64,000 nt of DNA, from the IMG/VR virus record IMGVR_UViG_3300032070_000730; one strand, written 5' to 3'. The notes under the pieces are model-generated. The model did no database searches. It saw nothing but the letters and a program-made list of their open reading frames with translations, and was not told the DNA's origin. This DNA comes from a virus (lineage: Duplodnaviria > Heunggongvirae > Uroviricota > Caudoviricetes). A program made the translations under genes and the position numbers. Shown here one piece after another: positions 5,250-34,934 of this stretch; position 1 is the first letter of the stretch, and the number at the start of each line of letters is the position of its first letter.

Positions 5250-5254
5250 TCAAA

Positions 5255-5795: not shown

Positions 5796-5830
5796 TTCAA
5801 ATCCACCCTTCTATGGAGTATAAACATGGA

Positions 5831-10247: not shown

Positions 10248-10256
10248 TTACATTAC

Positions 10257-14475: not shown

Positions 14476-17400
14476 ATGCCAGCAGAACTTCTTCCAGTCG
14501 ATGAGTTTGGGACTTTTCTTCGTGATTACTACAGCCTGAACAAGCCGAGACAAAATTTTTGTTGGGACATGAATGAAGAAATACAGACAGCATTTTTACG
14601 GGGAACAAAAAGAATCACTGTCGATTTCAGAGCGATGGAACAATTTGATGAGAAAAATGATACTAACCTTGTCAAGAGTATATTGTCATTGAGTGGTAAT
14701 GAATTAGAGGCATTTATAAAAAAATTAGAGGAAGAACTGAATAATATAGACAGAGTTATGATATTAAGGGAAGGAGAAGAAAAAGAAAATTTAAAAATTG
14801 GTCTAAAAAACCTTCCGATGACCTTGAGAATCAGCGACATACTTGCAGAGAAGCATCAGGGAAAATTGATACAGGTTGAAGGAATAATCCAGAATATAGG
14901 GATACCATTCAGATTCGCAAGAAAAAAAGTCTTTATATGCGACAGATGCACTTACGAATTAAGAAAAATATTTGACATCAATGAGAGAAAGATTCCAGAA
15001 AAGATGTGGTGTCCTTCATGCAGTGCTGAAAGAACTTTTACAGAAAACAAAAGTCAGGAAATCGTTCTCATCACGCAGTTGTTAACACTCGCTGAAGGTG
15101 TTGCCATGTCGAGTTCTATCCCGATTTCTTTAATGGTAGTTCTGTTCGAGGATTTGATTGATAACCCAGACCCAGACAGACGAAAGTTCATCGCTGGAGC
15201 AAAATTAAGAGTCGCAGGGATGTTAAAAGAGATGAAGACCAATTCTCCCGTAAAAAAATTATATCTTGAAGTCCTTCACTGGGATGTAGAAGCAGAAGAC
15301 ATAAAATTCGCTGATTCCGATATTGAGGAATTCAAAAAAATGTCTACAGACAGTGGGTTGATTGATAAATTAATCGCAAGTTTCTCACCCAGCGTGTATG
15401 GATACGAGGATGTAAAACTCGGTATGATACTACAGATAGTTGGCGGAATCACTAAATATTCCGTGAAAGACAAGAAAATGAATCGTGGGACTATCCATAT
15501 ACTGTTAATTGGAGAACCCTCGACCTCGAAATCGACATTATCCTTATTCAATTATAATTATGTCCCGAAGACAAAACTCGCTGTGTGCAGTGAGTTGAGT
15601 TTAGAATATAACGAACCGATTATATTTTCAGAAGATGGTTTAATAAAAATAATGAAAATAGGTGAATTTGTAGAAAACTATTCCAAAAAAAATATAAAAA
15701 TTCCATCTATAAATCCGCACACTTTTAAGAGTGAATGGAAATCTCTAAAAGGGGTTTTTAAACATAAAGATAACAGAGATTTAGTAAAAATACTTCTTGA
15801 AACTGGAAGAAATATAACAATAACACAAGACCATAGCATTTATGTTGCAGATGGGGATGGAATACATACAAAAAAAGGAAATGAAATAGAAAAAGGAGAT
15901 TTTGTAATTATACCAAAAAAAATAGTCGTGCCCCATAAAAAACATAAAAAAGAAATAAATTTGGTCGAGGAACTATTAAAATTGCCGACAGAAAAAATAA
16001 AAGACATCTATCTTCATGGGATTCCAAGAAAAATTCTTAAAAAAATTGGCAGAACATATCAAACTCATCTTGAAAGAGGTTATTTGCCTTTGCTTGAGGC
16101 AAGAAAACTACCAAAAAACATTTTAAGAAAAGCAACAATTTCAACAAAACACATTCCAACATTTATTCCAATTGATGAAAGATTAACGACACTTCTCGGT
16201 TATTATGTTGCCGAAGGATACAATCGTGAAGAAAAAAATCATTATTATAAAATAGAATTTTGTTTTGGAAACAAGGATTCAGAATTGATAAAAAAAACCC
16301 AACAAATTGTAAAGAATCTTTTTAATTTAGAATGCAGAAAACAAAGGGTCTATCAATTGTCAGTCAATGATAAAATCATTACCTATTTTTTCAAGTATAT
16401 CCTTAAAGTAAAACAATATGCAAAAAACAAAGAAATACCAGAAATTATTTTCAATTCACCACTAAAATCACAACTTGCCTTTCTTCAGGCATATATGCAG
16501 GGGGATTATGGTATTTCTGCAAGCAAAAAATTGATTTCAGACATACAATATCTCGCTCTTTTAATGGGAAAAGTCATAACTTCGTATGATACAAAAACAA
16601 AACCTGCTTTAATAAGGGGAAGAAAAATAAATTCGCAAAAAATACATTTTCATATATCACGAGTTCCTTGTCAGGATTTGTTTCAGAAAAAATTAAACGG
16701 ATTGAAAAAAATCAAAAAAATCCCAGATAAACTTTTGCCATTTATATTCGGGAAAACATTTGGATATGAGAATAGAAATATGAGGACTAATTCTAAAAGT
16801 TTGAAAAACAGGGCATTACAAAATGGATTTAATATGACCAAAAAAGAAATGAATTTCTTCAAAAAACTGGAACAATCTGATATTGGCTTTGTTAAAGTTA
16901 GAAAAACAGAAAAAATATTTCATAAAGATAAGTTTGTTTATGATATTTCTGTTGATGATAATGAAAATTTCATTGGGGGGTATGGTGGAATCCTATGTCA
17001 TAACACTGGGGCTGGGCTCGGCGTTGCTATGCTGAAAGACAAAGAAACAGAAAGTTGGTATCTATCTGCTGGAATTCTTCCTTTGAGTCACAAAGGATTG
17101 TGCATTCTTGATGAAATCGATAAAGCAAATCCAGAGGATATAAAATCTTTGGATATTGTCATGAGTTTACAGAAACTTCCTGTCTCAAAGGCAGGAATAA
17201 ACATCACACTTCCTGCTGAAGCGTCTGTCCTCGCTATAGCAAACCCCAAAGGTGCAAGATGGGACGCTTACCGAGACCTAAAAGACCAAGTAAATCTCTC
17301 CGAAGTGACGCTTTCCAGATTTGACTTGAAATTCTGCTTCAAAGACATTCCAAACGAAGAGAAAGACAAAATGATTGCAGAAAGAATCATAGATTCTGAT

Positions 17401-17958
17401 AATGTCGAGACACCTTTCACTTCCGAGTTTCTTGTAAAATATTTAATGTATGCCAAGACCATGAAACCAAAATTAACCGAAGCGACCACGAAAAAACTGA
17501 CAGATTTTTATATGGAGATGAGACAAAAAACCAAAGAGCAATCAGGAATCATGGTCATAACACCGAGACAGTTCGAGGGTATGATTAGAACATCGGAAGC
17601 ATTTGCAAAGTTAAGACTGGCTGAAGAGACAAATGAGTTGGATGCAGATAATTCTATAAAATGTTTCAAGGGGTTTTTGCGTTCATTTGGTTTTGATTAT
17701 GATACAGGTCAACTCGATATTGACAAAGCAGAAGGAAGGACATCTGGTCAGACAAGAAAAGACACGAGAGAAATGACAGAAATATTCGAAGATTTAAGGA
17801 GCATGTTCGGTGAAAGAGTCCCATTGTCAGATTTTACAGAGGCGTGCGAAAAAGAGGGAATACAAAGGGCAGGCGAAAAAATAAAACAAGCCATAAGAGA
17901 AGGATTGTTTTATCAAAAAGTCGGAGAAGAAGAAGATAAATTTATTAGAAAAGTATAA
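14476..17958 (+). CDS. mcm: MCM replicative helicase with inserted intein
   Basis: N-terminal C4 Zn finger CDRC...CPSC; Walker A GEPSTSKS; Walker B CILDEIDK; sensor-1 AIANP; Arg finger SRFDL. Length 1160 aa is explained by an intein in the P-loop region. Confidence 0.85.
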   Translation: MPAELLPVDEFGTFLRDYYSLNKPRQNFCWDMNEEIQTAFLRGTKRITVDFRAMEQFDEKNDTNLVKSILSLSGNELEAFIKKLEEELNNIDRVMILREGEEKENLKIGLKNLPMTLRISDILAEKHQGKLIQVEGIIQNIGIPFRFARKKVFICDRCTYELRKIFDINERKIPEKMWCPSCSAERTFTENKSQEIVLITQLLTLAEGVAMSSSIPISLMVVLFEDLIDNPDPDRRKFIAGAKLRVAGMLKEMKTNSPVKKLYLEVLHWDVEAEDIKFADSDIEEFKKMSTDSGLIDKLIASFSPSVYGYEDVKLGMILQIVGGITKYSVKDKKMNRGTIHILLIGEPSTSKSTLSLFNYNYVPKTKLAVCSELSLEYNEPIIFSEDGLIKIMKIGEFVENYSKKNIKIPSINPHTFKSEWKSLKGVFKHKDNRDLVKILLETGRNITITQDHSIYVADGDGIHTKKGNEIEKGDFVIIPKKIVVPHKKHKKEINLVEELLKLPTEKIKDIYLHGIPRKILKKIGRTYQTHLERGYLPLLEARKLPKNILRKATISTKHIPTFIPIDERLTTLLGYYVAEGYNREEKNHYYKIEFCFGNKDSELIKKTQQIVKNLFNLECRKQRVYQLSVNDKIITYFFKYILKVKQYAKNKEIPEIIFNSPLKSQLAFLQAYMQGDYGISASKKLISDIQYLALLMGKVITSYDTKTKPALIRGRKINSQKIHFHISRVPCQDLFQKKLNGLKKIKKIPDKLLPFIFGKTFGYENRNMRTNSKSLKNRALQNGFNMTKKEMNFFKKLEQSDIGFVKVRKTEKIFHKDKFVYDISVDDNENFIGGYGGILCHNTGAGLGVAMLKDKETESWYLSAGILPLSHKGLCILDEIDKANPEDIKSLDIVMSLQKLPVSKAGINITLPAEASVLAIANPKGARWDAYRDLKDQVNLSEVTLSRFDLKFCFKDIPNEEKDKMIAERIIDSDNVETPFTSEFLVKYLMYAKTMKPKLTEATTKKLTDFYMEMRQKTKEQSGIMVITPRQFEGMIRTSEAFAKLRLAEETNELDADNSIKCFKGFLRSFGFDYDTGQLDIDKAEGRTSGQTRKDTREMTEIFEDLRSMFGERVPLSDFTEACEKEGIQRAGEKIKQAIREGLFYQKVGEEEDKFIRKV
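15586..17004 (+). other. intein (473 aa) with LAGLIDADG homing endonuclease domain inside MCM
   Basis: Begins at the Cys after KTKLAV. LAGLIDADG blocks LLGYYVAEGY and FLQAYMQGDYGIS. Ends ILCHN followed by Thr (+1), then the extein resumes GAGLGVAM. Confidence 0.7.
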
Positions 17959-19033: not shown

Positions 19034-19300
19034 TTAAGATTTCCACTCTTTATCATACGGTTGAGGATATGTTTGTTTTTTCCAACCCCATTGTTTAACA
19101 TGATTTTTTGTCGTTACTTTAATCTCTCTATATTCTTTTTGTGGAATCTTCTCTAATGATTCTACTTTTTCTCGAAGTTCATGTGCCCTTTTTTGTAATT
19201 TCTCTCTTTTAATCCCATGCTTTTTCATCAAATATTGCATATATTTGTATGCTTCTGGGAATTGTTTTGATAATTCAGCCTCTTTGTATGTTTTATGCAT
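19034..19300 (-). CDS. hypothetical protein
   Basis: 88-aa basic ORF. Confidence 0.3.
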   Translation of the reverse strand: MHKTYKEAELSKQFPEAYKYMQYLMKKHGIKREKLQKRAHELREKVESLEKIPQKEYREIKVTTKNHVKQWGWKKQTYPQPYDKEWKS

Positions 19301-19827
19301 TATTCCTCACCAACAACCCAACGTGTCGCCATTCTTGGGAATGTTTCTCTCGCCATTAATTTTGATGGTTCAAGTTCTCCTAACATTTTCAGCCCCTTTC
19401 TTTTAGAAAGTTCTCCTTTTTTGATTCTTCCTTCTATTTCTGACATCTGGGGAGACCAACTTTTTTTTGCATACCATTTTAATACGTCTGGTATTTTCTT
19501 CACTTTACCCATTTTTTCTATGAATCTCTGCCTTTCCTTTTCTGATAATCTGTTGTAAACTTTGTGCGACATTTCATGAACCACATCCCTTGCTGTTTCA
19601 CTGTAATATTCTTTTTTGGGTATTCGCACAAAAGTCTCTTTAGGAATGTTACCTGTCACAAACCCCATTACGGGGTCTTCAGTATATCCTCTTGGGTATA
19701 CCGTGAATTTTCTTGGAAGTCTTATAGCATGAACCATATATAATTTATGTGTGCATAAATATTTAAAAATTTTAGAAATATTTAAATATTTACTCGTCGT
19801 ATTATTAGATAGGTATAAACTATGCAC
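19300..19827 (-). CDS. HExxH zinc metallopeptidase-like protein
   Basis: VVHEMSHKV HExxH motif; divergent from the MVHK array. Confidence 0.4.
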   Translation of the reverse strand: MHSLYLSNNTTSKYLNISKIFKYLCTHKLYMVHAIRLPRKFTVYPRGYTEDPVMGFVTGNIPKETFVRIPKKEYYSETARDVVHEMSHKVYNRLSEKERQRFIEKMGKVKKIPDVLKWYAKKSWSPQMSEIEGRIKKGELSKRKGLKMLGELEPSKLMARETFPRMATRWVVGEE

Positions 19828-20070
19828 AAAATGAAGAAAAATTGTGAAGCCTGTAAGAGATTCGAGGTTCAGTGGGAATTGGTGGATAAAGTTGGAAACG
19901 ATAAACCATACAAAGTATGCTCTAATTGTTTATTGGAATTAGTTGGGCACGCTTTGAACAAAAATCAGTTCAAGAATCTTTTGAAAAGTAGCCACAAGGA
20001 AGGCGAGTTTTTATTACACAGCGACTTTTATGACGAGAAGGGGAACGCTTTACAGTCAGTATTTAAGTGA
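19822..20070 (+). CDS. zinc-ribbon protein (starts MHKMKK)
   Basis: CEACK...CSNC. Confidence 0.35.
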   Translation: MHKMKKNCEACKRFEVQWELVDKVGNDKPYKVCSNCLLELVGHALNKNQFKNLLKSSHKEGEFLLHSDFYDEKGNALQSVFK

Positions 20071-20090: not shown

Positions 20091-20396
20091 ATGGTTCATA
20101 AATATACTAAAGCCGAAGGAAAGAAAGAAAAATGGATGAAAGGTTGGGCTGAAGAATTAAACAAAATACAGAATTATCCTTATATCTATGATATGAAGAC
20201 CAAGAAATTTTTCAAAAGATTAAGATGGGGGGATAATGAAACAGTTGAAAAGGGAGAAAGATGCCACGATTGCGGGGTATTGAAGGGTTCTTATCACGGT
20301 GATGGATGCGATATGGAAACAGACCCAAGAACAGGGAGTCAATTACTTGGTTCAGAAGATTTTCATATATCCCAAAGAATAAGGCAAAGGATTTAA
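20091..20396 (+). CDS. MVHK-array protein 1
   Basis: MVHKYTKAEGKK...; 101 aa. Confidence 0.5.
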   Translation: MVHKYTKAEGKKEKWMKGWAEELNKIQNYPYIYDMKTKKFFKRLRWGDNETVEKGERCHDCGVLKGSYHGDGCDMETDPRTGSQLLGSEDFHISQRIRQRI

Positions 20397-20435
20397 ATCT
20401 AACTATAGGATTTAAAATATAGGTAAGGTGAGAAA

Positions 20436-20627
20436 TTGGTTCATAAAAGAATTAAAGACCAGTCGAATAAAATAATAGATGCTATTTTGACAGAAAGAAA
20501 TTTAGTCAGAGATGGTTACTTAATAGTCAACCAAATAGGGGGGACAATTTATGTTTCTTATGATGATTTGTCATCAAAAGAATTGAAAGCACTCTCGGAA
20601 CAAAAAAAATTAAGTGAGGAATCATAA
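20436..20627 (+). CDS. MVHK-array protein 2 (TTG start)
   Basis: TTGGTTCATAAAAGA reads (M)VHKRIKDQ. Confidence 0.45.
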   Translation: MVHKRIKDQSNKIIDAILTERNLVRDGYLIVNQIGGTIYVSYDDLSSKELKALSEQKKLSEES

Positions 20628-20881
20628 TGGTTCACTTAATGAAATTAAAAAAGAATGAAATTCCTGAAGGGTGGAAATTATACAGACATTTTAAAGACGG
20701 TGCAGAATATAGGGGATTAAGAGGTTTCGTTGCAGTTCGCAAGGACGGAAAGGAATATTGGTTCGATTGGGGAATCAAAAAAGGAGATATGTTGGCATCT
20801 TCATTCGTCAAAGATAAGAAAAAAATAAAACCCGAATTGAAGAGAATAATGACAAGAGAATTTCCTATAGAGGCTGATTAA
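20627..20881 (+). CDS. MVHK-array protein 3 (MVHL variant)
   Basis: ATG overlaps the preceding TAA. Confidence 0.5.
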   Translation: MVHLMKLKKNEIPEGWKLYRHFKDGAEYRGLRGFVAVRKDGKEYWFDWGIKKGDMLASSFVKDKKKIKPELKRIMTREFPIEAD

Positions 20882-20883
20882 AT

Positions 20884-21048
20884 ATGGTTCATAAAACAAA
20901 GAGATTCAAAGTGGATTTTAGTGACATGAAAAGCATCACGAAAGCAGAGAAGATGAAAGCGATGCTGGAGAACAAAGGATACAACCTCAAATCGACAAAG
21001 CAGATAGGTTTCGACAAATGGGTTGGCACATACGAGAGGGATGAATGA
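20884..21048 (+). CDS. MVHK-array protein 4 (54 aa, not in ORF track)
   Basis: ATGGTTCATAAAACAAAG reads MVHKTKRFKVDF... Confidence 0.45.
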   Translation: MVHKTKRFKVDFSDMKSITKAEKMKAMLENKGYNLKSTKQIGFDKWVGTYERDE

Positions 21049-21311
21049 TGGTTCATATATTAAAGAAAAAACCAAAGATTGACTTGGATTTTATTGATTA
21101 CATAGCAAAGTGGGGAAGGTGGAACATAGAAAGAGAGGGCGTTGGGAGAACATATACAAGAGGCGACCAGAAGATAAAAATAATGAAAGTTTCGGACGGG
21201 TTTAAAATCGTGTTGTTCAAAAAAGGTTATCCAGTCGATACTGATGTGTCTAAATATAAAAACATGATTTATACACTGGCTGGAGAGGCACTTGCATTTA
21301 GGGTGTGGTAA
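21045..21311 (+). CDS. MVHK-array protein 5 (MMVHILKK)
   Basis: Start ATGATG overlaps the upstream TGA. Confidence 0.5.
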   Translation: MMVHILKKKPKIDLDFIDYIAKWGRWNIEREGVGRTYTRGDQKIKIMKVSDGFKIVLFKKGYPVDTDVSKYKNMIYTLAGEALAFRVW

Positions 21312-21312
21312 A

Positions 21313-21507
21313 ATGGTTCATAAAATTACTCCAAAAACAATACGTTTATATGGAATAAGGATAAACAATAAAAAAATTCTCAAAGATTATCTAAATGCTT
21401 TACTTGGAAATACAAGTAGAAAAATTGAAGATGAAGAAATAGTTAGAATAACCGAGAATGTTTTAAAAGAATTTAAAGAAAGGAGAAAGATTCCAATAAA
21501 GGGATAA
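21313..21507 (+). CDS. MVHK-array protein 6
   Basis: ATG immediately after the upstream TAA; MVHKITPKT. Confidence 0.45.
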   Translation: MVHKITPKTIRLYGIRINNKKILKDYLNALLGNTSRKIEDEEIVRITENVLKEFKERRKIPIKG

Positions 21508-21509
21508 TT

Positions 21510-21833
21510 ATGGTTCATAAATTAAGACCGTATGCGATTTTGACCACTGAAAGTAATAGAGTTGAAGTCAAAGCAAGAACTCTTGCGGAAGCATACAGAA
21601 AAGCAAAAAAAGAATTGATAAAATTCAATAAAGACCCCAATCTGAAAAAAGTCGGTTTTGAAAACCAAGACTTGACTTCAGCATACGAGACTTATGGAAG
21701 AAGTGGAATATCAACGAAGGGGTTCGTAATAACTTCAAAATCAATAGAACTTCATAAAAAACATAATCTTGGAATTTCAAAAAAGCATCCTTTGCAGGTG
21801 CTTTATGGAGATGTGAGAGTGCGTGGTTCATAA
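21510..21833 (+). CDS. MVHK-array protein 7
   Basis: MVHKLRPYA; 107 aa. Confidence 0.5.
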   Translation: MVHKLRPYAILTTESNRVEVKARTLAEAYRKAKKELIKFNKDPNLKKVGFENQDLTSAYETYGRSGISTKGFVITSKSIELHKKHNLGISKKHPLQVLYGDVRVRGS

Positions 21834-22029
21834 AAATGGTCAAATAAAAGAAGAATGGGCAAAATTCATAATTAGCCAAGCCCTATTGGAGATAAGAACA
21901 GAAAAAGATATTCCTAAAGTCATAGAAAAAGTCGAAGGAACTGCACTTGGGAGCAGACCAGACCTGATGAAAAAATTCTTGCGTTTAGTTGAATCAAAAA
22001 GAAATTTGTTAAAACACAAAGGGAGATAA
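21823..22029 (+). CDS. MVHK-array protein 8 (GTG start)
   Basis: GTGGTTCATAAAAAT reads (M)VHKNGQ. Confidence 0.45.
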   Translation: MVHKNGQIKEEWAKFIISQALLEIRTEKDIPKVIEKVEGTALGSRPDLMKKFLRLVESKRNLLKHKGR

Positions 22030-22030
22030 A

Positions 22031-22294
22031 ATGGTTCATAAGATTAAAAAAAATCCAAGCATAAAGAAAGTATTACATTCAAAAGACAAAGATTTAGACA
22101 ACGCATTTGTGAATGATATGTATGTTAAGCAGGGATATAGTGCTTTACAGGTTAACATTGAAGCCAAAAATCAACAGATTACATCTGCTCTTGATAGAAA
22201 AATAAGAAGGGTTGTAAATAAAAACGAAAAGAAATTATTGGATAAATTCGGTGGAAATTATATTGAAATTAACACTTTTGGAATAGTTGATTAA
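22031..22294 (+). CDS. MVHK-array protein 9
   Basis: MVHKIKKNPS. Confidence 0.5.
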   Translation: MVHKIKKNPSIKKVLHSKDKDLDNAFVNDMYVKQGYSALQVNIEAKNQQITSALDRKIRRVVNKNEKKLLDKFGGNYIEINTFGIVD

Positions 22295-22296
22295 TC

Positions 22297-22401
22297 ATGG
22301 TTCATCACAAAAAAAAATATAAAAGATGTGAATATTGCGGTAAAAAATGTTTAACTTCTCCGTGTTTGGAATGCGGGTATAGGAGAGGGGTGTATTCATA
22401 G
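22297..22401 (+). CDS. MVHK-array protein 10 (MVHH; 34-aa zinc ribbon)
   Basis: CEYCGKKC...CLECG. Confidence 0.4.
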   Translation: MVHHKKKYKRCEYCGKKCLTSPCLECGYRRGVYS

Positions 22402-22577
22402 TGGTGCATAAAATCAGGAAGGGGGGGAAAGATTGGAATAAATTGTCTATTGAAGAACAAGATATAATAGCCGATAGATTTTTTAAAGATAGAGATACTT
22501 ATGCATGGACAGAAGATGGTTATCCAACATTACCTTTTAAAAAATATTTAAAACAGGAAGGTTATTATGGTTCATAA
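22401..22577 (+). CDS. MVHK-array protein 11 (GTG start; VVHK)
   Basis: GTGGTGCATAAA overlaps the upstream TAG by 1 nt. Its last codons plus stop (..GGT TCA TAA) overlap the next gene's ATGGTTCATAA start. Confidence 0.4.
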   Translation: MVHKIRKGGKDWNKLSIEEQDIIADRFFKDRDTYAWTEDGYPTLPFKKYLKQEGYYGS

Positions 22578-22695
22578 AAAATTAACTTCAAAAGAAAAGA
22601 TGCAAAGAATAGCAATGGCTACTTTTGCATGGGATAAAGACCAAATGTCAACTAATAATGCTTTGAAGAATGTAAAAAGAGCGTTGAGTGATTAA
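22567..22695 (+). CDS. MVHK-array protein 12 (42 aa)
   Basis: MVHKKLTSKEK. Confidence 0.4.
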   Translation: MVHKKLTSKEKMQRIAMATFAWDKDQMSTNNALKNVKRALSD

Positions 22696-22696
22696 G

Positions 22697-22996
22697 ATGG
22701 TTCATAAAATAAAAAAGAAAACCCCGAAAGACATCGATGTTTTTTGGTATTTTGAAGAAGTTTTAATCAAAAAAGATTTGGATACAGATGATTGGTATAA
22801 AGGAAGAACAAATCAATTGATTTTAAACCTTTTAAATAGTGTAGAAAATGATGTTATTGGGAGTATTGAGGGGGGTGAAGGTATTCCAAGAGCAACTGCA
22901 AAAAAGGCGGTTGATATATTCAGAAAGGGAATAGAAAAAGAATTAAAAGAACACCCAGATTATCCTTATGATGTTACACAAGGAGAGTATGATTAG
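22697..22996 (+). CDS. MVHK-array protein 13
   Basis: MVHKIKKKTPKD; the ORF track's upstream extension is likely spurious. Confidence 0.5.
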   Translation: MVHKIKKKTPKDIDVFWYFEEVLIKKDLDTDDWYKGRTNQLILNLLNSVENDVIGSIEGGEGIPRATAKKAVDIFRKGIEKELKEHPDYPYDVTQGEYD

Positions 22997-22997
22997 T

Positions 22998-23168
22998 ATG
23001 GTTCATAAAAATGAAATAAAGGTAAGAGCAAAAGATTTACTCAAAGCAATAAAAGATAATCTTGAGAGTTGTAAAAAAGCAGGAATAGATACTACAGGTG
23101 GTTATGTCAAACAACAATACATAGCAGACGAGATGGATGAATTGGAACAGGCTATTAAGAGGAAATAA
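22998..23168 (+). CDS. MVHK-array protein 14
   Basis: ATG 2 nt after the upstream TAG; MVHKNEIKV. Confidence 0.45.
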   Translation: MVHKNEIKVRAKDLLKAIKDNLESCKKAGIDTTGGYVKQQYIADEMDELEQAIKRK

Positions 23169-23170
23169 TT

Positions 23171-23359
23171 ATGGTTCATATATTAAAGAAAGGATTTTAT
23201 TGTCCTCACTGCGGAGATTATCTTGGTAAAATCAGTGGAGAACATGATGAATATGATTTGTTGAAAAGACATCTGGAAAACAGAAATTGCAGTTCTAAAG
23301 GAGCGATGAAGATTTATGAAGCAGAGGACAGAGAAAAAATGGGTTTTCATGATGATTGA
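23171..23359 (+). CDS. MVHK-array protein 15 (MVHILKK; zinc ribbon)
   Basis: CPHCGDY...C. Confidence 0.45.
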   Translation: MVHILKKGFYCPHCGDYLGKISGEHDEYDLLKRHLENRNCSSKGAMKIYEAEDREKMGFHDD

Positions 23360-23361
23360 TT

Positions 23362-23553
23362 ATGGTTCATAAAATTGGTATCAAAAAATTGGGAGATTTG
23401 TGGACATTAACTTTGAATGGAAAAGAAGTTACTTGGAGTGATTTTGACCCATTCGGAGATGTTCCAGCAGTATATCAAACAAAAAAAGAAGCAGAAAAGG
23501 ATTTGGAAAGATTGAAGAGTATATTAAAAACAAAAAGTGCTTATAGTGATTGA
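23362..23553 (+). CDS. MVHK-array protein 16
   Basis: Junction TGATTGATTATGGTTCATAAAATTGG. Confidence 0.45.
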   Translation: MVHKIGIKKLGDLWTLTLNGKEVTWSDFDPFGDVPAVYQTKKEAEKDLERLKSILKTKSAYSD

Positions 23554-23555
23554 TT

Positions 23556-23879
23556 ATGGTTCACAGAGTCAAAATAAAACTGGAGAAAAAATACAAGGCT
23601 TGGTTCATAATCAGAGGTGGTGGTTTCTCTGCACAAGAAGGATTGCAAGACATTCTCAAAAACTTTGCGGTTGACAATTACAAAACAGAACCTTCATTCT
23701 TAATGGTTGAAAAGGGGTTCAACAATAAACAGGATGCTTGGAAATGGACAAATATGATAAGTGAAAGACTTTGGAAATTTAGTTGGTATAAGCAGGCAGA
23801 TTGTTCTGTATCAGGCGTTCAGATGAAAGATATTGTTTCTGGTAAAGAAGATTGGTATGATGTAGAAGAGGGAGAATGA
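23556..23879 (+). CDS. MVHK-array protein 17 (MVHR)
   Basis: Junction TGATTGATTATGGTTCACAGA. Confidence 0.45.
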   Translation: MVHRVKIKLEKKYKAWFIIRGGGFSAQEGLQDILKNFAVDNYKTEPSFLMVEKGFNNKQDAWKWTNMISERLWKFSWYKQADCSVSGVQMKDIVSGKEDWYDVEEGE

Positions 23880-24037
23880 TGGTTCACAAAAGAAGTTCAG
23901 AATGCGAATATTGCGGGAAGGAATTGAAAAGAACACAAAAAAGATTTTGCAGTAGTTATTGTGAAATACGAACATCAGAAAAAGCAAGAGAATTGATTAA
24001 AAAAGAGAGCAAAGAATTGGAAGAAGAGGGATGGTAA
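23879..24037 (+). CDS. MVHK-array protein 18 (52-aa zinc ribbon)
   Basis: MVHKRSSECEYCGK...CSSYC. Confidence 0.4.
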   Translation: MVHKRSSECEYCGKELKRTQKRFCSSYCEIRTSEKARELIKKESKELEEEGW

Positions 24038-24238
24038 ATGGTTCATAAAATTGATAGAAGCAAATTAAATATGCTTGAAAGAGATTTGATAGAAGGATTG
24101 ACAGATGAACAGGCTCAAAAAATTATAAATACAGTAAATGCAATCACAAAACATATAAACGATGAAGAGATAATATTTAGAGACGTGTCAGGAACTCCAA
24201 CTATATTAAGGCTTAAAAAATTTGGAGAGCATAGTTGA
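24038..24238 (+). CDS. MVHK-array protein 19
   Basis: MVHKIDRSK. Confidence 0.5.
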   Translation: MVHKIDRSKLNMLERDLIEGLTDEQAQKIINTVNAITKHINDEEIIFRDVSGTPTILRLKKFGEHS

Positions 24239-24244
24239 TTGATT

Positions 24245-24385
24245 ATGGCTCATAAAATTACAAAATGGAAAACTCATAAAAGAATGACCAAATGGGAAAA
24301 GGAATATGGAAGATGTTGCAGACAATGTTATGACCCAGAAAATCCTCATCCCGAATATTGCAGTTGTCTTTGCCACGAGAGGTAA
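24245..24385 (+). CDS. MVHK-array protein 20 (MAHK variant, Cys-rich 46 aa)
   Basis: ATGGCTCATAAAATT; CCRQCYD...CSCLCH. Confidence 0.4.
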   Translation: MAHKITKWKTHKRMTKWEKEYGRCCRQCYDPENPHPEYCSCLCHER

Positions 24386-24390
24386 TGTTT

Positions 24391-24621
24391 ATGGTTCACA
24401 AAATAAAAGGAGTTGTCAAGTATTGGGATTTAGGTAGAGGAAAAGCATCTGGTTTACTAAAAATAGATGCGAAAAATGAGGAAGATTTCAATAACAAACT
24501 TGAAAATGAATTTAAAAAATACCTTATGAGTAGAGATATAAGTTTTGATAATGGAAAAGTATTTGTTGGCGGTTTTAGGCATGTGGGTAATTTTCAATTC
24601 ATAGCAAAAGAGGAAGATTAA
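24391..24621 (+). CDS. MVHK-array protein 21
   Basis: MVHKIKGVVKYW. Confidence 0.45.
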   Translation: MVHKIKGVVKYWDLGRGKASGLLKIDAKNEEDFNNKLENEFKKYLMSRDISFDNGKVFVGGFRHVGNFQFIAKEED

Positions 24622-25026
24622 ATGGTTCATCGGGTCAAGAAATCAAAAGAAAGGTTTGATTTTCCTTTAGACCCAAGTTTAAAAACAAGAATCGCAATTT
24701 ATGTTCCTTCAACTTATGATGGTGTTCATCCTATCGGCAAACAAAAATTTGCAAGAAGAGTCGGCGAGACTCAAAAGTTCCTTAACAATCTATTTGGCGG
24801 TTCGACAAGGATTCGTGGAGAAGGTTCTTATGTCATGAAAGGCGGAAAACTAATAAAAGAAGATGTCGCAGTAGTAGAAGCATTCACAGAACCCAGAAAA
24901 TGGTTTGAAAAAGATTTGGCTGTCAAGAGATGGATTGAGAACAAGAAAAGGAATTGGAAGCAGGAATCTATGTCTTTCGAGTATGAAGCACCACAACATC
25001 CCGCTTCAAGTCTAACATTTGTTTAA
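24622..25026 (+). CDS. MVHK-array protein 22 (MVHR; 134 aa, last of array)
   Basis: MVHRVKKSKERF. Confidence 0.5.
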   Translation: MVHRVKKSKERFDFPLDPSLKTRIAIYVPSTYDGVHPIGKQKFARRVGETQKFLNNLFGGSTRIRGEGSYVMKGGKLIKEDVAVVEAFTEPRKWFEKDLAVKRWIENKKRNWKQESMSFEYEAPQHPASSLTFV

Positions 25027-26051: not shown

Positions 26052-26938
26052 TGGTTATCACCTTTGTTTATTTTTATCAAGGCGATTGTCGCCTTTATGG
26101 TCTGCCAATCATCATTGTCAGACTCAACTAATTCGAGTAAATCCTCAAAAATATCAAACCTGTCAGAATCAAAGTGCTCCTTCAATTTTTTCATGTGTGT
26201 TTTTAATTTTTTGGCGAGGTTGGCTACGATTATCGATGATATTTCTTTCCTGTCATTTTCAGTTAGTAAATAATTCCAAACTCTGAAAGAAGTCTTTAGA
26301 TGATGAAGTTCATTGTCAAATCCACTGTAAGCAAATCTTTCCTCGCTCAATCGAAAGGCATTGCTTTTGATTCCAGAAAGCACACCGCCTTTCAAATTAT
26401 TTTCCATTTCTTGTTTCTGGTCGATTTTTATAAGTTTTTTTAGATTATTGATTCTTTCTTCTGCCCATAATTCTTTTGTCATCATATTTATCAAAATATC
26501 GATTGGAAGTTTTATTCTGCTTGCTCTAAATTTTTTATGTTCCATCAAGTCGATAAACTCGCTTTGATTTTCTTTAGCCAGCACTACAAGGACGCTATCG
26601 AATTCATCGTCGCTTAAAAAATCCAACAATGTCTCCCATTTACGAGAACCATATTGTGTTTTTATCAAACTTTTGGCTATCTCTTCCGCAGTAAAGAAAC
26701 CTTTAGCCCTTAATTTCTTCGTATAATCGATAAAGAATTTTTTCAAATCGCCTTCAAGATAATCGATAATACCGACATACTTTTCCTGAAATTCATCTCT
26801 TTTGACCTTTTTCATATTATCCAAATCAATGCTCACTTTTATTTCTCCGTCTTCAAATTTCAGACCTTCCCTGAAGAATTTTTCTGCAAATTCCATTATT
26901 TCGTTATCACTCATATTTTTCACCCTCTTTGAAATCAA
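26048..26938 (-). CDS. hypothetical alpha-helical protein
   Basis: 296 aa; overlaps neighbours by 4 nt (operon). Confidence 0.3.
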   Translation of the reverse strand: MISKRVKNMSDNEIMEFAEKFFREGLKFEDGEIKVSIDLDNMKKVKRDEFQEKYVGIIDYLEGDLKKFFIDYTKKLRAKGFFTAEEIAKSLIKTQYGSRKWETLLDFLSDDEFDSVLVVLAKENQSEFIDLMEHKKFRASRIKLPIDILINMMTKELWAEERINNLKKLIKIDQKQEMENNLKGGVLSGIKSNAFRLSEERFAYSGFDNELHHLKTSFRVWNYLLTENDRKEISSIIVANLAKKLKTHMKKLKEHFDSDRFDIFEDLLELVESDNDDWQTIKATIALIKINKGDNQ

Positions 26939-28310
26939 GAACTACAACAGCACCAAATTTATTGGCGGTCTTATTGTAGTCTTTATCATAAGTAAGGAAC
27001 AAAGTCTTGAAGTTCCATCTGATTCTTTCTGGGTAGTGTGCTTCCGTATCAGTGAAGATTAACAAGACTTTTGCACGAATCTTTTCTGCAAACACAAAAA
27101 CATCACTCAAGTCAGTCCCGCCATCAGTCCTGTTCTTGAAAATTGTTTTTACCTGATTCCTGTTGAGCCTGTTCAATGGATATTTTCTGCTTATGCCATC
27201 ATCGAAGAACACCATCCATCCATCCATCTTGAAATTCTTTACAAGACCGAGCAAATCACTGCCGAACTTTCTATATTTGTTGTCATCGATACTACCAGAA
27301 CTATCGATTGCTACAACAACTTTGTCCAGATTCGTCTTCAATCTCGCAGGGATTATAAAACCATTTTTTTCAAAACTTGGAGTCGTATAGAATCTTCTAT
27401 GTGGTCTTGAATAAGTAATATCATGACCATTATCTGCTACCTTTTCCGACATGACATTTTTCAGAACACCGTGCCAGTTTCTTTTCTTCTCGATTAATTC
27501 TTCGAGCATCTCAATCAAATCGCCACGACCTTTTCCAGCGATTTTACTTATCATGATTCCTTGAGCGAGCAGACTTTTTACATAATCTTTTAGTTCGCTG
27601 AACCCTTCCTTCTTTGCATTCTGTGAGAATTCTTCGTCTTTGTCGGTTTCAGTATCAGTCAAATCAGGACTATAAGATTTTAATTTCTCTTCAATTTCTT
27701 CATCGCCTTTTCCTTCTCCCTCACCGTTTTCATCTTCTTCTTCGTTCTCATCTGAACCTTTACCTTCGCTTCCTTCATCAGATTCTTCGTCTTTTTCTTC
27801 TTCATCAGGTTCACCAGATTCGCCAGAACCACCACCACTACCGCCGATTTTTTCAGCAGATTTTGTCAGTGCATTGTAGACCTTTTCAGTCTCCAAATCT
27901 TCGACGGAGAATTCAACAAGAAGATTTTTTCTTTGCAGGTTGGTCAAATTTGTCTCTATCTCTATGATGTCCTGTTCCTTCAACATCAGAGAATTGATTA
28001 CGACATCGCCTGAAATATTCCAGTATAACTTGTTTTTGCCTTCAAGTTTGTTAAATCTTTCTTCATGCTTGAGTATGATATGAAGAACCTCGTGTTCAAG
28101 AAGCCTTGTCCTGAATCTTTTAGGATTAAGATTTTCATTTTTCTCGATTTCTTGAATACAAGAATCATTAACAAGAATCACCTTGCCGTTAGTCAATGCT
28201 GGAAACGGCAAGTCCGTTTTCACGATAGGTATGTGTAAAAGAACAAAACCTATCACAGGGTTCTGATTTAGAATCTTCAGTTTGATTCCTTCAGTCCACT
28301 CTACAACCAT
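26907..28310 (-). CDS. vWA-domain protein with N-terminal DUF2201-type putative metallopeptidase domain
   Basis: HEVLHIILKHEERF (HExxH), MIDAS VVAIDSSGSID, long acidic Gly/Glu linker. Confidence 0.6.
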   Translation of the reverse strand: MVVEWTEGIKLKILNQNPVIGFVLLHIPIVKTDLPFPALTNGKVILVNDSCIQEIEKNENLNPKRFRTRLLEHEVLHIILKHEERFNKLEGKNKLYWNISGDVVINSLMLKEQDIIEIETNLTNLQRKNLLVEFSVEDLETEKVYNALTKSAEKIGGSGGGSGESGEPDEEEKDEESDEGSEGKGSDENEEEDENGEGEGKGDEEIEEKLKSYSPDLTDTETDKDEEFSQNAKKEGFSELKDYVKSLLAQGIMISKIAGKGRGDLIEMLEELIEKKRNWHGVLKNVMSEKVADNGHDITYSRPHRRFYTTPSFEKNGFIIPARLKTNLDKVVVAIDSSGSIDDNKYRKFGSDLLGLVKNFKMDGWMVFFDDGISRKYPLNRLNRNQVKTIFKNRTDGGTDLSDVFVFAEKIRAKVLLIFTDTEAHYPERIRWNFKTLFLTYDKDYNKTANKFGAVVVLDFKEGEKYE

Positions 28311-29332
28311 TCGCTCACCTCTGCGACAATCTTGGTCAATTCTTTGTCTTTCAAAAGTTTCTTGAAGACCTTTTCCTTCAAGTCAGCGTCTAACACGATT
28401 CTCTGCAATAACAAATACAAATATTCAAGACCAAGTTCGTTTTTAATAAAATCTACGACCGCAGTTATGTTGTCTTTTTGTTTGACGTATCTGAAAGACT
28501 TTTCAACGAAGACCAGTTTATGAGTCGTGTTGTCCTGCAATTTCTTTTTCTTGCTCAACACTTCATCAACTTCTGGGACTTCTGCGAAAGTTGTCAGATA
28601 GACTGCAAACTTTTCTGCGACCTTGCTTCCCAAAAACCCTTTCAACATGTCGAACAAAAGAACGTTTCCAAAATCTTCCATCTTTATCTGTGCCATCGCC
28701 TTGCTCAAGAGTTCCCAAGTTCTCGGACAAGAGAATTGCTCGTTGACACCTTCTTCCTGATTCATGCAAAGATATTGTGGGTTGTCCATGAGGAAGTTCA
28801 AAATCTTCCCATCTATCTTATTATCTGTTGCCCATTTGCACCAGTCCTTGAAATACCAGTGGTCTTTTGTCAAGTCATTGACATCAATGTTCAATAACCA
28901 GACTCTTGTAATCTCTGCACTGTCCAGCGAAGTTGTGTATGTCCCATGTTCTGCGTTACCTGCAAGAACAATCCAAACAGTGTCTGGAAGAATTATGTCC
29001 TCGAATTTTCTCTCATTAATCAAAGACAGGACTGCATTTCTTGTCTGACCATCTGCACGGTCATACTCATCGAAGAAGATGATTGCATTTCCTTCCTTCA
29101 CTATGTTTTTGAATTGCTTGCTTGTCAAATACTCAATACCATCTTCAGTCAATCTTGGAATAAGAAAGTCCGAAGAACTTCTTCTCGCCAAGTGAATGAA
29201 GAAGCACTGCTTTTTTTCTTCCTTTGCAATTTGCAAGATAACCTGCGTCTTACCAATACCTGACGCACCAAAAATACCGATAGCAGTTCCAGATTTTAGA
29301 ATCTGCTTAATGATTGGTATGTATCTCAACAT
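28301..29332 (-). CDS. MoxR-like AAA+ ATPase
   Basis: Walker A GASGIGKTQ; Walker B/sensor IIFFDEYDRADGQTRNAVLSLI; partner of the vWA protein. Confidence 0.55.
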   Translation of the reverse strand: MLRYIPIIKQILKSGTAIGIFGASGIGKTQVILQIAKEEKKQCFFIHLARRSSSDFLIPRLTEDGIEYLTSKQFKNIVKEGNAIIFFDEYDRADGQTRNAVLSLINERKFEDIILPDTVWIVLAGNAEHGTYTTSLDSAEITRVWLLNIDVNDLTKDHWYFKDWCKWATDNKIDGKILNFLMDNPQYLCMNQEEGVNEQFSCPRTWELLSKAMAQIKMEDFGNVLLFDMLKGFLGSKVAEKFAVYLTTFAEVPEVDEVLSKKKKLQDNTTHKLVFVEKSFRYVKQKDNITAVVDFIKNELGLEYLYLLLQRIVLDADLKEKVFKKLLKDKELTKIVAEVSEWL

Positions 29333-31535: not shown

Positions 31536-32429
31536 CTATTTAGTTGCTGGTATGCTAACAAGCGGTGTCGTTCCAGTTCCGAGCATATACACTGGCATTT
31601 TTCCGTCCCACTTTTCAACCCATCTCAATTGAACTACATCTGGATTTTCTCTCAATGCCTGTCCCTGAATCCTAATTGATTCTGCTTCTGCTGTCGCAAC
31701 TTTTAATTTTGCGTCTGCTTCACCAACTGCCTGTGCAATTTTTCTTTCAGCCTCTAATTTTTCTTTCTTAACTTCAGTCTCTTTCTGCAACATCTCTTGT
31801 TCTGTTTTTTGCTTGGCTTCCACTGCATTCTTTATCTGTTCTGGTATGGCTACATCCCTTATTAAAACTTCTTCAAGGATAAATCCATCTTTGTCGAATT
31901 TCTCAAAAAGATTATCATATATCCCTTCTTCAAGTTTCTCCCTTCCTGCACCATAAAGTTCTGTGACAGCCATCCCACCCGCAACATCCCTTGTCGCTGA
32001 ACGGACTGAAGGTATCACTGTTCCCCAGACATATTCGGTAGTCAAACCTTTTACTACATCGATTGCCTTCTCTGGTTTCACTTTGTAGAACACTGAAACA
32101 TCTACTATAATTTCAAGACCCTCTTTGCTTGGAACTTGCACTGCTATGTCATCGCAATCATCTACTTCTCGCTTGCATTCTTCATAAGTTCCATACAAGT
32201 TAATTGTGTCTCTTGCAGTTTTTATATGATAGACAGTCTGCAAAACAGGTGTTTTAATATGCCAACCGATTCCCATCGTATCTGGAAGGATTCCCTTGCT
32301 TGCATCATATACAACGCCAACTTCTCCAGCATTTATTATTTCTATAGAATCAAATATCAATATCACTGCAACTATCACTGCGACTATGCTAACACACCAT
32401 ATTAAAATGGTTCTTATAGGTTCTTCCAT
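31536..32429 (-). CDS. SPFH/band-7 (stomatin/prohibitin-like) membrane protein
   Basis: N-terminal TM; SPFH core (VVYDASKG...IIVDVSVFYKV); C-terminal Ala/Glu/Lys coiled coil. Confidence 0.65.
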   Translation of the reverse strand: MEEPIRTILIWCVSIVAVIVAVILIFDSIEIINAGEVGVVYDASKGILPDTMGIGWHIKTPVLQTVYHIKTARDTINLYGTYEECKREVDDCDDIAVQVPSKEGLEIIVDVSVFYKVKPEKAIDVVKGLTTEYVWGTVIPSVRSATRDVAGGMAVTELYGAGREKLEEGIYDNLFEKFDKDGFILEEVLIRDVAIPEQIKNAVEAKQKTEQEMLQKETEVKKEKLEAERKIAQAVGEADAKLKVATAEAESIRIQGQALRENPDVVQLRWVEKWDGKMPVYMLGTGTTPLVSIPATK

Positions 32430-33469
32430 AATATCCCCTCTGTCGCAAAGAGACCACCTATTTCAATAGGTGGATGAATTGCAACCTTGAATTTGTGCGA
32501 TAACCATGAAATTTTAGTTGAAACTTTTCCAATCCTTTTGTTTTCCAAATTTCTTATCCAAACATTATTTTTAGTCCCACCAACTATTTGACCAAATTCA
32601 CATATTGTTCCTTTTCTTATTCCTTTAAAATTTCCTGTTGAATATCTTTCCCTTATCCCATCCTTTGAAAATTGTGTATCATGCAACCTTCTTCTTTTGG
32701 GTCTATAAGTATCGTCAACAACCAAAATATTGTCAGTATGAGTTGGGTTATTAACTATTTCTGAAGCGATTACAAAACTGTCAATACAATGTGAATAAAA
32801 GTGCTCTGCTGATTTGTTTGTTGATTTTTTCAATCCTTTCTTTTCTCTCAAATCTTTTGTTTCAAATCCATTAAATATCAGGTAATTTTCCCTTCCAACT
32901 TCATTTACAAGAAAATCCTTGATTGTTTTTTTCCCTATTTCAACTGTGCTGAAATTCTTTCCCCATCTGTTATCCCTATGGTTGAATTTGACATCTTCAA
33001 TTGCAACTTTGTTGATTGGATAATATTTGAATATTTCCCCCATACATTTCAATCTGCTGTTTACAATGACAAATTGCGAAGGTGCGATAAATCCATCTCT
33101 TTTCCTATTGTCAAATCTGCATTCCCTTCTTCTACAATCCCTAAATCGTCTTGCCCTTCTTAATTGTCTTCTTTCTTTTAATTTCCTGACAATGGTTTTC
33201 TTGTCAGGAAGTTTCCACATGACATTCAGGTTATTCTCCTTTTCAGATACAATCGAGTATCCTTCAAATTTTGTTCCAAAATCACAACCCAAAATAAATT
33301 TAGGCACTTCTTTTCTTGTTTCTATTAACATTTGTATTCCAAACAATCCGAACTTGTTCCAGACTGGCTTTGCTACTTTACCTTTTAGGAGTTTTCTCGC
33401 TTTACTTGGTTTGCATGGTGTCAAAGGGTTTCCACTCTCACTTAACACAAATATTCTATTCGGAGACAT
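32414..33469 (-). CDS. isrB: IsrB-like (IscB lacking HNH) RuvC-type OMEGA nuclease
   Basis: Likely real start MSPNRIFVLSESGNPLTPCKPSKARKLLKGKVAKPV (PLMP domain). RuvC-I ILGCDFGTKFEGYSIV; Arg-rich bridge helix RRQLRRARRFRDCRRRECRFDNRKR; RuvC-II VAIEDVKF; RuvC-III HCIDSFVIAS; no HNH. ORF track extends to 33640 (TTG) through low-complexity sequence that is more likely RNA. Confidence 0.7.
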   Translation of the reverse strand: MSPNRIFVLSESGNPLTPCKPSKARKLLKGKVAKPVWNKFGLFGIQMLIETRKEVPKFILGCDFGTKFEGYSIVSEKENNLNVMWKLPDKKTIVRKLKERRQLRRARRFRDCRRRECRFDNRKRDGFIAPSQFVIVNSRLKCMGEIFKYYPINKVAIEDVKFNHRDNRWGKNFSTVEIGKKTIKDFLVNEVGRENYLIFNGFETKDLREKKGLKKSTNKSAEHFYSHCIDSFVIASEIVNNPTHTDNILVVDDTYRPKRRRLHDTQFSKDGIRERYSTGNFKGIRKGTICEFGQIVGGTKNNVWIRNLENKRIGKVSTKISWLSHKFKVAIHPPIEIGGLFATEGILWKNL

Positions 33470-33760
33470 ACTCCCAACATATTTGTTGTCATACCCACAT
33501 CCAAAATGATTGAAAGGTATAGAGTTATCACTACTGTTTGTAGCGTTTTCTAAACTCATGGAATTCAATGGTTCTTCCGAATAATTCAGGACTTGTGGAG
33601 TATCCTGAAGTTCTTGTAACCCTTCAGTCGTAGTTGCCAATTTTTTTACCTCAACTTTTTGTAGTCAACCCTTGCGTTGTCACCATCATCACAAGCCACC
33701 GTTTTTAAACGGTGGTGGTTGACTAAAATCTCACCGAATAAGAAAGATTAAGGTTTAAAG
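33470..33760 (-). ncRNA. candidate omega-RNA scaffold upstream of isrB
   Basis: Relatively GC-rich. Hairpins CCACCG-UUUAAAAA-CGGUGG and UUCAGGA/UCCUGAA. 7-bp long-range pairing GUCAACC/GGUUGAC. Position 5' of the nuclease gene as in IscB/IsrB loci. Confidence 0.4.
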
Positions 33761-34403: not shown

Positions 34404-34790
34404 ATGTCTGGTTCTGGAAAGGTTAATGACATTGAGTTTGAAGCGATTCAAACAGCAGTGAGAATGTTCAGCAAGAATATAATATTGTATTCTGACAATC
34501 TTCCTGCTATTCATAGAGCAAAGGGAATTTTTAATGGCATGGAAATCCGACATATAATGGGGAAGGACAATCCTGCACATAAGTCGCTATGCGGGTGCGG
34601 GATGCCTAAAAAAATAAAAGAGATAAGGCACGAAGAGATAAAAAAAAGAATCAGAGAAATAAATGAAATCTCATACAAAAAACCAAATTACATGACGGTA
34701 ATGACACCAGAAGGAGAAAGAATCATGAGCCAGTCGAAATTCAAAAAATATGTGAGGTTCATGCAGAATAAATTTTATCACAACAAATAA
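34404..34790 (+). CDS. hypothetical protein
   Basis: 128-aa basic ORF. Confidence 0.3.
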   Translation: MSGSGKVNDIEFEAIQTAVRMFSKNIILYSDNLPAIHRAKGIFNGMEIRHIMGKDNPAHKSLCGCGMPKKIKEIRHEEIKKRIREINEISYKKPNYMTVMTPEGERIMSQSKFKKYVRFMQNKFYHNK

Positions 34791-34934
34791 TTAAAAAAAA
34801 AGAAAAAAATAGGCTATTTACTTCGCAGTGACGCTTCCGCCAACAACTTTAGCAGACAAATAATTAAAAAAAAAAGAAAAAAATAGGCTATTTACTTCGC
34901 AGTGACGCTTCCGCCAACAACTTTAGCAGACAAA
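34788..34934. repeat. tandem direct duplication (2 x ~73 bp)
   Basis: Unit TAATTAAAAAAAAAGAAAAAAATAGGCTATTTACTTCGCAGTGACGCTTCCGCCAACAACTTTAGCAGACAAA occurs twice head-to-tail (one extra A in copy 2). Copy 2 carries the last 14 codons plus terminator T-run of gene 34892..37099. Confidence 0.8.

Follow-up and report, generated by a model that had tools for sequence, protein, structure and literature searches.

A short in-frame leader shared by an array of unrelated small genes in a probably archaeal mobile element

In T4-type phages, hyperplastic regions contain cassettes of small, mostly ORFan genes separated by short conserved expression signals, the promoter-early stem-loops (PeSLs), and recombination between PeSLs is the source of the indels and replacements by which close relatives differ (PMC2839356, PMC4122927). 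The internal proteins of T-even phages are a diverse set of small basic accessory or anti-defence proteins that have only a short N-terminal leader in common. This capsid-targeting sequence (CTS), ~10 residues long, guides the proteins into the known scaffold core for packaging and is a substrate of the prohead protease, which cleaves it (PMC3012670). Here, we describe an array of small genes in the IMG/VR virus record IMGVR_UViG_3300032070_000730. The analysis covered a stretch of 64 kb (the window) from a contig that measures at least 105 kb. Judged by its genes, the window looks archaeal and like a mobile element or a virus. The array appears to shuffle like the PeSL cassettes and to resemble the T-even leader, but it does not have the full set of defining features of PeSLs, of the CTS or of integrons. 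On balance, we lean towards the reading that the module carries a specific in-frame leader, which tags the products alike at the N-terminus, gives them a uniform start of translation and doubles as the junction at which cassettes recombine.

The array is located on the plus strand at positions 20091-25026. It consists of 22 consecutive, tightly packed, non-homologous small open reading frames (ORFs) of 34 to 134 amino acids (aa), spaced by -11 to +6 nucleotides (nt), with a single spacer of 39 nt as the sole exception. Each ORF opens with NTG-GTT-CAY. The only exceptions lie in codon 2, which is GCT (Ala) at 24245 and GTG (Val) at 22401. The start codon is ATG in 19 genes, GTG in two and TTG in one, while codon 4 encodes Lys in 16 of the 22 genes, Arg in two, Ile in two, Leu in one and His in one. 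Together with three neighboring genes that carry variants of it (MHK, MHK and MVHA), 25 genes of the window bear the leader. It is missing from the ~115 other predicted genes, including two other long arrays of tightly coupled small genes, and is specific to one module of the element. Allowing up to two mismatches, ATGGTTCATAAA is present in 44 copies in the window, compared to 18.6 ± 3.9 in shuffled sequences. The most repeated non-trivial k-mers of the window are ATGGTTCAT and its extensions, and all copies but one lie inside the array. Pairs of junctions have 8-16 nt exactly in common, and one pair has 21 nt.

The leader ATGGTTCATAAA itself heads gene 1 (20091-20396, 101 aa, MVHKYTK), a member of a Zn-binding CxDCG...GCD family, as well as genes 4 (20884-21048, 54 aa), 6 (21313-21507, 64 aa), 7 (21510-21833, 107 aa), 12 (22567-22695, 42 aa), 13 (22697-22996, 99 aa), 14 (22998-23168, 56 aa) and 19 (24038-24238, 66 aa). 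The three non-ATG starts singled out by the initial annotation are indeed present: TTG in gene 2 (20436-20627, 63 aa, TTGGTTCATAAA), GTG in gene 8 (21823-22029, 68 aa, GTGGTTCATAAA), which overlaps gene 7 by 11 nt, and GTG-GTG in gene 11 (22401-22577, 58 aa, GTGGTGCATAAA). Genes 5 (21048-21311, 87 aa) and 15 (23171-23359, 62 aa, a Zn-ribbon) both start with ATGGTTCATATA (MVHILKK), and genes 18 (23879-24037, 52 aa, a Zn-ribbon) and 21 (24391-24621, 76 aa) with ATGGTTCACAAA, gene 18 having CAT in a strain variant. Further forms are found in gene 3 (20627-20881, 84 aa, ATGGTTCACTTA, MVHL), gene 9 (22031-22294, 87 aa, ATGGTTCATAAG, with AAA in a strain variant), gene 10 (22297-22401, a Zn-ribbon of 34 aa, ATGGTTCATCAC, MVHH), gene 17 (23556-23879, 107 aa, ATGGTTCACAGA, MVHR), the Cys-rich gene 20 (24245-24385, 46 aa, ATGGCTCATAAA, MAHK) and the DUF3574-like gene 22 (24622-25026, 134 aa, ATGGTTCATCGG, MVHR).

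Alignment of the 22 junctions from -30 to +33 reveals strong conservation at +2 to +9, moderate conservation at +10 to +14 and background levels further out. Upstream of the array starts, only a G-rich Shine-Dalgarno (SD) sequence at -12 to -7 and the A/T of a stop codon are visible. This upstream block reads GGTGA(T)/GAGG, and the same SD is used by genes of the window outside the array. The initial annotation had proposed an extended conserved junction at this place, with (G)TGATTGATTATGGTTCA(T/C)AAAAT in about eight copies. This could not be confirmed. The 21-nt sequence GATTGATTATGGTTCATAAAA is found exactly only once, at gene 16 (23362-23553, 63 aa), and four times with up to three mismatches; TGATTGATT precedes only three starts (23362, 23556 and 24245), and eight junctions have in common only a TGATT within 12 nt upstream. 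Among the array junctions, similarity upstream and similarity downstream of the start are uncoupled, and the upstream GTGATTGATT is nothing but a generic SD with the preceding stop codon. By the terms that the initial annotation had set, this outcome refutes the extended junction. The many upstream genes said to end in Asp-stop amount to seven of the 21 within-array genes that precede a junction, and they do so because the GAT of the SD abuts TGA or TAA. No conserved signal is present at -40 to -20 of the 22 junctions, and no local inverted repeats were found at them.

Comparison with closely related strains indicates how the array changes. In four independent assemblies (L011, L012, L013 and L014), which are 97.5-99% identical to the window in the shared DNA, whole cassettes differ. 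In a first event, six genes (window 22415-23554) are replaced by one 92-aa body, which in L011 is a paralogue of gene 1 (43% identity). The homology stops at +14 of GTGGTGCATAAAAT in gene 11 (22401), whose leader is the left breakpoint, and restarts at -1 of ATGGTTCACAGA, the start of gene 17 (23556), which is the right breakpoint. The rare GTG-GTG leader is retained with its upstream flank and the body behind it is exchanged, which places the crossover inside the leader. In a second event, the genes at 24038, 24245 and 24391 are missing. The joint of this three-gene indel consists of the upstream flank of gene 19 (24038, left breakpoint) and the body of gene 22 (24622, right breakpoint), with the crossover within the common TAAATGGTTCAT. 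In both events, the breakpoints are precise, scarless and inside the motif. The idea, already raised in the initial annotation, that the junction could act as a recombination site is thereby supported.

The array thus compares with the PeSL cassettes in that indels and replacements are bounded by a repeat, here with two events, both seen in four independent assemblies. However, PeSLs are intergenic, combine a promoter with a terminator and belong to phages of bacteria, whereas the repeat of the array is 12-14 nt long, coding, situated at the start codon and archaeal; a promoter and stem-loop terminator between genes are lacking at all 22 junctions. In polymorphic toxins, short coding demarcation motifs (such as VENN in CdiA, with its orphan CT modules) part a constant region from exchangeable bodies. 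There too, the motif supplies the homology for module replacement, but it lies inside one large protein with toxin-immunity modules, whereas the array is built of separate small genes with a constant part of four codons.

The motif might also be the core at which a dedicated system of site-specific recombination acts, in an integron-like platform whose recombinase would put cassettes in and take them out at NTGGTTCAY. The precise scarless breakpoints inside the motif, the GTG-GTG junction that was kept during the exchange of its body, and a second array with its own uniform junction in a relative would agree with such a system. The array shares with integrons the co-oriented, promoterless, unrelated small ORFs and the whole-cassette variation between close relatives. 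Nevertheless, we consider it very unlikely. No tyrosine or serine recombinase, and thus no IntI-type enzyme, is found among the window ORFs, where the only mobile-element nucleases are TnpB-like and IscB-like. The cassette ends have no attC-like palindrome (in integrons an imperfect inverted repeat of ~60-140 bp), and the spacers measure at most 6 nt, apart from the one of 39 nt. Moreover, the site is always in frame at the start codon, where it encodes a conserved peptide and a basic extension, and a recombination core needs neither.

In spite of their common start, the array genes are not paralogues of one another. An all-against-all BLASTP comparison of the array proteins yields only N-terminal matches to the leader. 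The best matches between bodies are short: 20436 against 21823 (E = 6e-5, 62 aa), 22297 against 23879 (E = 1e-4, leader and CxxC) and 20627 against 22401 (E = 5e-4, 28 aa). None of the array proteins matches a curated Pfam or PADLOC family, and a single one of the 25 leader-bearing genes matches a PHROG family, which is of unknown function. Within the DUF3574-like family of gene 22, relatives of 99% and 82% identity begin with MVHR or VVHK, while relatives of at most 42% identity begin otherwise. Likewise, among 238 matches to the Zn-binding family of gene 1, relatives of 96% and 49% identity begin with MVHK and none of the 24 more distant ones examined does. The leader is therefore a property of the element that has been added onto diverse proteins. 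One pair of unrelated genes, 21048 and 23171, is 88% identical over 34 nt at the start (21035-21068 and 23158-23191), the first 21 nt being identical, which suggests a past exchange reaching beyond the core leader.

It is hardly credible, therefore, that the array is a tandem paralogous family diverged past recognition save for its N-terminus, or a compositional accident of an AT-rich genome. The similar gene sizes, the several Zn-ribbon-like genes and the additional L011 cassette, a true paralogue of gene 20091, would fit a common descent. But a tandem family would have homology along the length of its proteins, no significant pairwise similarity is present past the leader, and genes 22 and 1 belong to two different families, both with distant members that have no leader. 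As for an accident, no shuffled sequence reached the observed motif count, and His is a rare residue overall (1.4-1.7%).

The leader is also present in more diverged relatives. L273, with an MCM 57% identical to that of the window, and L004 stem from the same samples and may be the same element. Together, they contain eight MVH(K/R/H) genes and one MHR gene. Of the array genes, gene 22 alone has a homologue in these loci, an 82% identical orthologue in L004. The leader shared by otherwise unrelated genes thus outlives the genes it heads; in the window and the diverged relatives, more than 30 unrelated proteins bear it. In L004, homologues (37-3046) of the genes at 55-58.8 kb of the window (54973-58847), including a histone-fold gene, are immediately followed by the MVH genes, which means that the module has a different genomic arrangement there.

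A different uniform junction is found in L268 (MCM 59% identical). At 3842-6126, eight junctions have GG(T/A)GAAATGAAAAA|ATGAAGAAAG in common, composed of SD, stop, spacer, start and the codons for MKKE, with the minor Lys codon AAG in six of the eight. The downstream ORFs encode 82-99 aa without significant pairwise similarity in six of eight cases, the other two being short (27 and 24 aa). No uniform junction was seen in the available parts of L265, L266 and L270. Such arrays can tentatively be read as an integrase-free, in-frame cassette system, a possibility to which we attach limited confidence. The leader would then be a universal splice point, an expression adaptor and an N-terminal address tag at once, the bodies would be exchanged between co-resident elements and immediately translated, and the leaders would differ by array (MVHK here, MKKE in L268).

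Further arrays were sought in several ways. The MCM query gave no match in viral_contigs and genome_contigs, and an alignment of DUF2201, found beside the array (see below), gave one distant, uninformative locus in metagenome_contigs. Two full motifs 152-182 nt apart were found at six loci in viral_contigs, none with an array. A looser three-motif pattern, run against genome_contigs and viral_contigs, gave only collagen-like and other internal repeats among the matches listed. No published mention of MVHK in this sense was found.

At the peptide level, the only invariant residue is His, both in the 25 genes of the window and in nine genes of relatives. It is encoded at position 3 in the leader genes and at position 2 in the MHK variants. 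The other replacements are conservative, with Val changing to Ala and Lys to Arg or His. Arg in the leader is encoded by CGG, CGA, AGA and AGG, the relatives using CGA, AGG and AGA (e.g., in MVHRRRQRP). The leader is followed by a basic stretch: at positions 5-10, Lys and Arg make up 37% of residues compared to 18% in other genes (P = 2e-5), and Asp and Glu 8% compared to 15%. Over the first 12 residues, the net charge amounts to +2.8 versus +0.7. This Lys/Arg-rich and Asp/Glu-poor tail reaches to about residue 10, and past residue ~12 the composition is back to normal. The wobble position of the His codon is at background, with a CAT:CAC ratio of 24:10 (n = 34; 72% CAT expected). Within the first 12 nt of orthologous starts, the strains differ by C/T at +9 (23879) and by G/A at +12 (22031), both synonymous third-position changes, and the CGG/CGA difference in gene 24622 is synonymous as well.

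The invariance of His could point to a metal-binding N-terminus. According to the methionine aminopeptidase rule, Met is removed before Val or Ala and retained before His. The residue preceding His is Val, Ala or none, so by this rule all products would have His at mature position 2 and expose X-His-Lys (VHK, AHK or MHK), like the Cu(II)-binding GHK. If Met were kept, the site would be of the ATCUN type (X-X-His). The basic tail would tether the metal centre to nucleic acid. Removal of Met before Val has been documented for the capsid protein of an archaeal virus (PMC7230728). Still, the proposal is drawn from the sequence alone, it leaves the fixed GTT codon and the MKKE junction of L268 unexplained, and no known biology calls for 25 such proteins. 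We regard it as highly improbable.

The nucleotides are constrained beyond what the peptide requires. Val is encoded by GTT in 28 of the 30 cases, where 42% is expected (P = 4e-9), and GTC and GTA are never used. GTC accounts for 0 of 28 GTY codons (P = 2e-6), while the T/C transition three bases downstream, in the His codon, varies freely. Archaea decode GUU and GUC with one tRNA. Lys at position 4 is encoded by AAA in 15 of 16 genes. Selection acts on both levels, the peptide and the nucleotide. The claim of selection on the peptide, made in the initial annotation, is thus upheld by the invariant His, the conservative swaps, the background wobble of His and the basic tail, but the fixed GTT shows that the peptide is not the only target. 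The unequal behavior of the two neighboring wobble positions (GTT fixed, CAY free) offers a natural experiment, parting RNA-level from peptide-level selection at the start site.

This codon usage also carries the main rival explanation, in which the selected object is the mRNA. AUGGUUCAYAAAAU would act as an element of the initiation region, either a downstream enhancer of initiation or re-initiation or the operator of a single RNA-binding regulator, and would render translation uniform and jointly controllable. The peptide and the recombination would be by-products. In addition to GTT and AAA, the weak conservation on to +13/+14, into codon 5, would be accounted for, as would the coupling of the genes at spacings of -11 to +6 nt and the start region, which is predicted to be unstructured at all 22 junctions, without any conserved RNA structure. 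In the downstream box of T7 gene 10 or cspA, and in the operators of T4 RegA, a conserved sequence extends from the initiation codon ~12-15 nt into several ORFs. The information in the array, high at +2 to +9 and moderate to +14, is distributed in a similar way, and the motif bears what we take to be a likeness to the classical E. coli/T7 downstream box ATGAATCACAAAGTG. The conservation of those elements, however, is loose and not linked to any invariant peptide, and the base-pairing model of the downstream box has been refuted in E. coli.

Several observations are difficult to explain by the mRNA. The relatives encode the basic tail with G/C-containing Arg codons, and codons for Glu and Asp, just as A-rich, are depleted. 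The MHK and MHR variants drop GTT and keep His with a basic residue, and other tightly coupled arrays of the element have no leader. Furthermore, two first-in-unit genes, at 19737 (minus strand) in the window and at 6681 in L273, start 22 nt past a TATA-like box and are probably leaderless, while the internal genes are probably led by an SD. The leader is found on both types and is thus independent of the mode of initiation. For these reasons, an RNA-level operator or enhancer as the primary object seems unlikely to us, though it must be taken seriously.

In the reading that we favor, a fixed in-frame 5' leader would mark one accessory-gene module of an uncultured, archaeal, MCM-encoding mobile element. 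Each product would start with M-V-H-K/R, followed by a short basic, acid-poor tail. Within a uniform, unstructured translation start, the leader would serve as an N-terminal handling tag, for sorting, packaging, nucleic-acid association or turnover. The same 12-14 nt are present at every gene start and there is essentially no intergenic DNA, so it is also here that recombination exchanges, removes or adds gene bodies, and an incoming body retains a complete SD, start codon and leader. As with the T-even CTS, the small proteins of the array have nothing in common but a short conserved leader at the N-terminus. In contrast to the T-even system, the tagged genes (25) are far more numerous and no virion genes or prohead protease are detected in the window. 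The junction alignment contains no conserved cleavage motif after the leader.

A number of points weigh against this reading. Neither a partner of the tag nor machinery to package it nor an enzyme to process it was identified, and Pfam and PHROG scans of essentially all ORFs of the 64-kb window detected no capsid, portal, terminase, prohead protease or recombinase. The GTT fixation and the AAA preference indicate that an RNA- or DNA-level signal is selected too and could be primary, and the unrelated junction of L268 argues that the identity of the junctions as such matters, rather than this peptide. Only two recombination events are available, and as there is no intergenic DNA, surviving breakpoints would be expected at gene starts also if selection simply kept the genes intact. 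Finally, related contigs are few in the databases searched.

Should the leader truly be an address tag, a whole class of effectors of archaeal mobile elements (25 here and others in the relatives) could be found by their first four codons instead of by homology. Such a search would be useful because no tagged protein matches a family of known function. The array also represents a concrete, testable case of accessory-gene reshuffling in archaeal elements, in which crossovers fall in a short coding repeat, so that each incoming gene stays expressible.

The region next to the array contains the variant leaders and a divergent promoter region (19738-19821), where both strands carry TTTAAATATTTA, a palindromic TATA-like element. 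The first gene of the plus-strand transcription unit (19822-20070, 82 aa) has the variant leader ATGCACAAAATG (MHKMKK), with the start ATGCACAAA (MHK). On the minus strand, the divergent gene (19300-19737, 145 aa) begins with ATGGTTCATGCT (MVHAIRL) and the second gene of the divergent unit (19034-19300, 88 aa) with ATGCATAAAACA (MHKTYK), its start being ATGCATAAA (MHK). The box TTTTAAATATTTAT precedes the MVH/MH units in L004 and L273 as in the window. It is not module-specific, as similar TTTAAAnaTTTA boxes are found ahead of other units of the window. A 17-nt palindrome (TAAATATTTAAAAATTT / AAATATTTAAATATTTA) is also present in the divergent promoter region, at 19756-19792.

The sole real intergenic spacer of the array (20397-20435, plus strand, 39 nt) is rich in TTTAAA (AAGGATTTAAATCTAACTATAGGATTTAAAATATAGGTAAGGTGAG) and can be aligned by eye with the one that precedes an MVH gene in the distant relative L273 (about 10205-10253). 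An internal promoter or a site for protein binding may lie here. Other candidate functions of the junctions were rejected. A promoter for each gene is contradicted by the lack of a TATA-like signal at -26, and a mimicry of the tRNA T-loop or the tRNA-Met anticodon loop by GGUUCAUAA by the lack of a flanking stem and the misfit of the T-loop A58 position. The palindrome TTATG-GTT-CATAA as a protein-binding site has its left arm in only four to five junctions, and no convincing complementary site for an antisense RNA to the motif was found.

Beyond the end of the array, a gene for a DUF2201 metallopeptidase/VWA protein and one for a MoxR-like AAA_5 ATPase are located on the minus strand (26907-29332). 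The pair is found beside the array end in L004 and L011 as well. In L010, the pair is kept, and the contig stops in the gene-22 homologue, so that no array is visible. It is conceivable from this linkage that the pair has to do with the tag, in processing or chaperoning. The AAA_5 gene of L010 contains an intein.

Among the products of the window are an intein-containing MCM, a Cdc6-like ATPase, PCNA, an XPB-type helicase, a fragment of a PolB exonuclease and a histone-fold protein. Besides the DUF2201 peptidase/VWA protein with its MoxR-like ATPase, an S-layer-domain protein, radical-SAM/B12 enzymes and glycosyltransferases are present. No tRNA, rRNA or Rfam family was found in the window. 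The element recurs in several metagenome assemblies, and the nearest named MCM proteins are from DPANN archaea, at no more than 41% identity over parts of the protein. The MCM gene (14476-17958) is split by an intein with a LAGLIDADG domain. Among the relatives, L268 has an intein too, and L265, L270 and L273 have none.

The TnpB-like ORF (11311-12534) corresponds to OrfB_IS605 / Cas12f-like TNB and the IscB-like ORF (32414-33640) to RRXRR and HNH domains; no Rfam match to an omega-RNA was found. The IscB-like gene is missing at the corresponding place in L001 and L002. A 74-nt unit is repeated in tandem at 34783-34941 (2.2 copies, 96% identical), and the repeat runs into the 3' end of the gene for the S-layer-domain protein (34892-37099, minus strand). 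In a pooled Pfam scan, two small ORFs of the window match the Lar restriction-alleviation family and one matches an NrdR-like Zn-ribbon, which is consistent with anti-defence or regulatory cargo elsewhere in the element.

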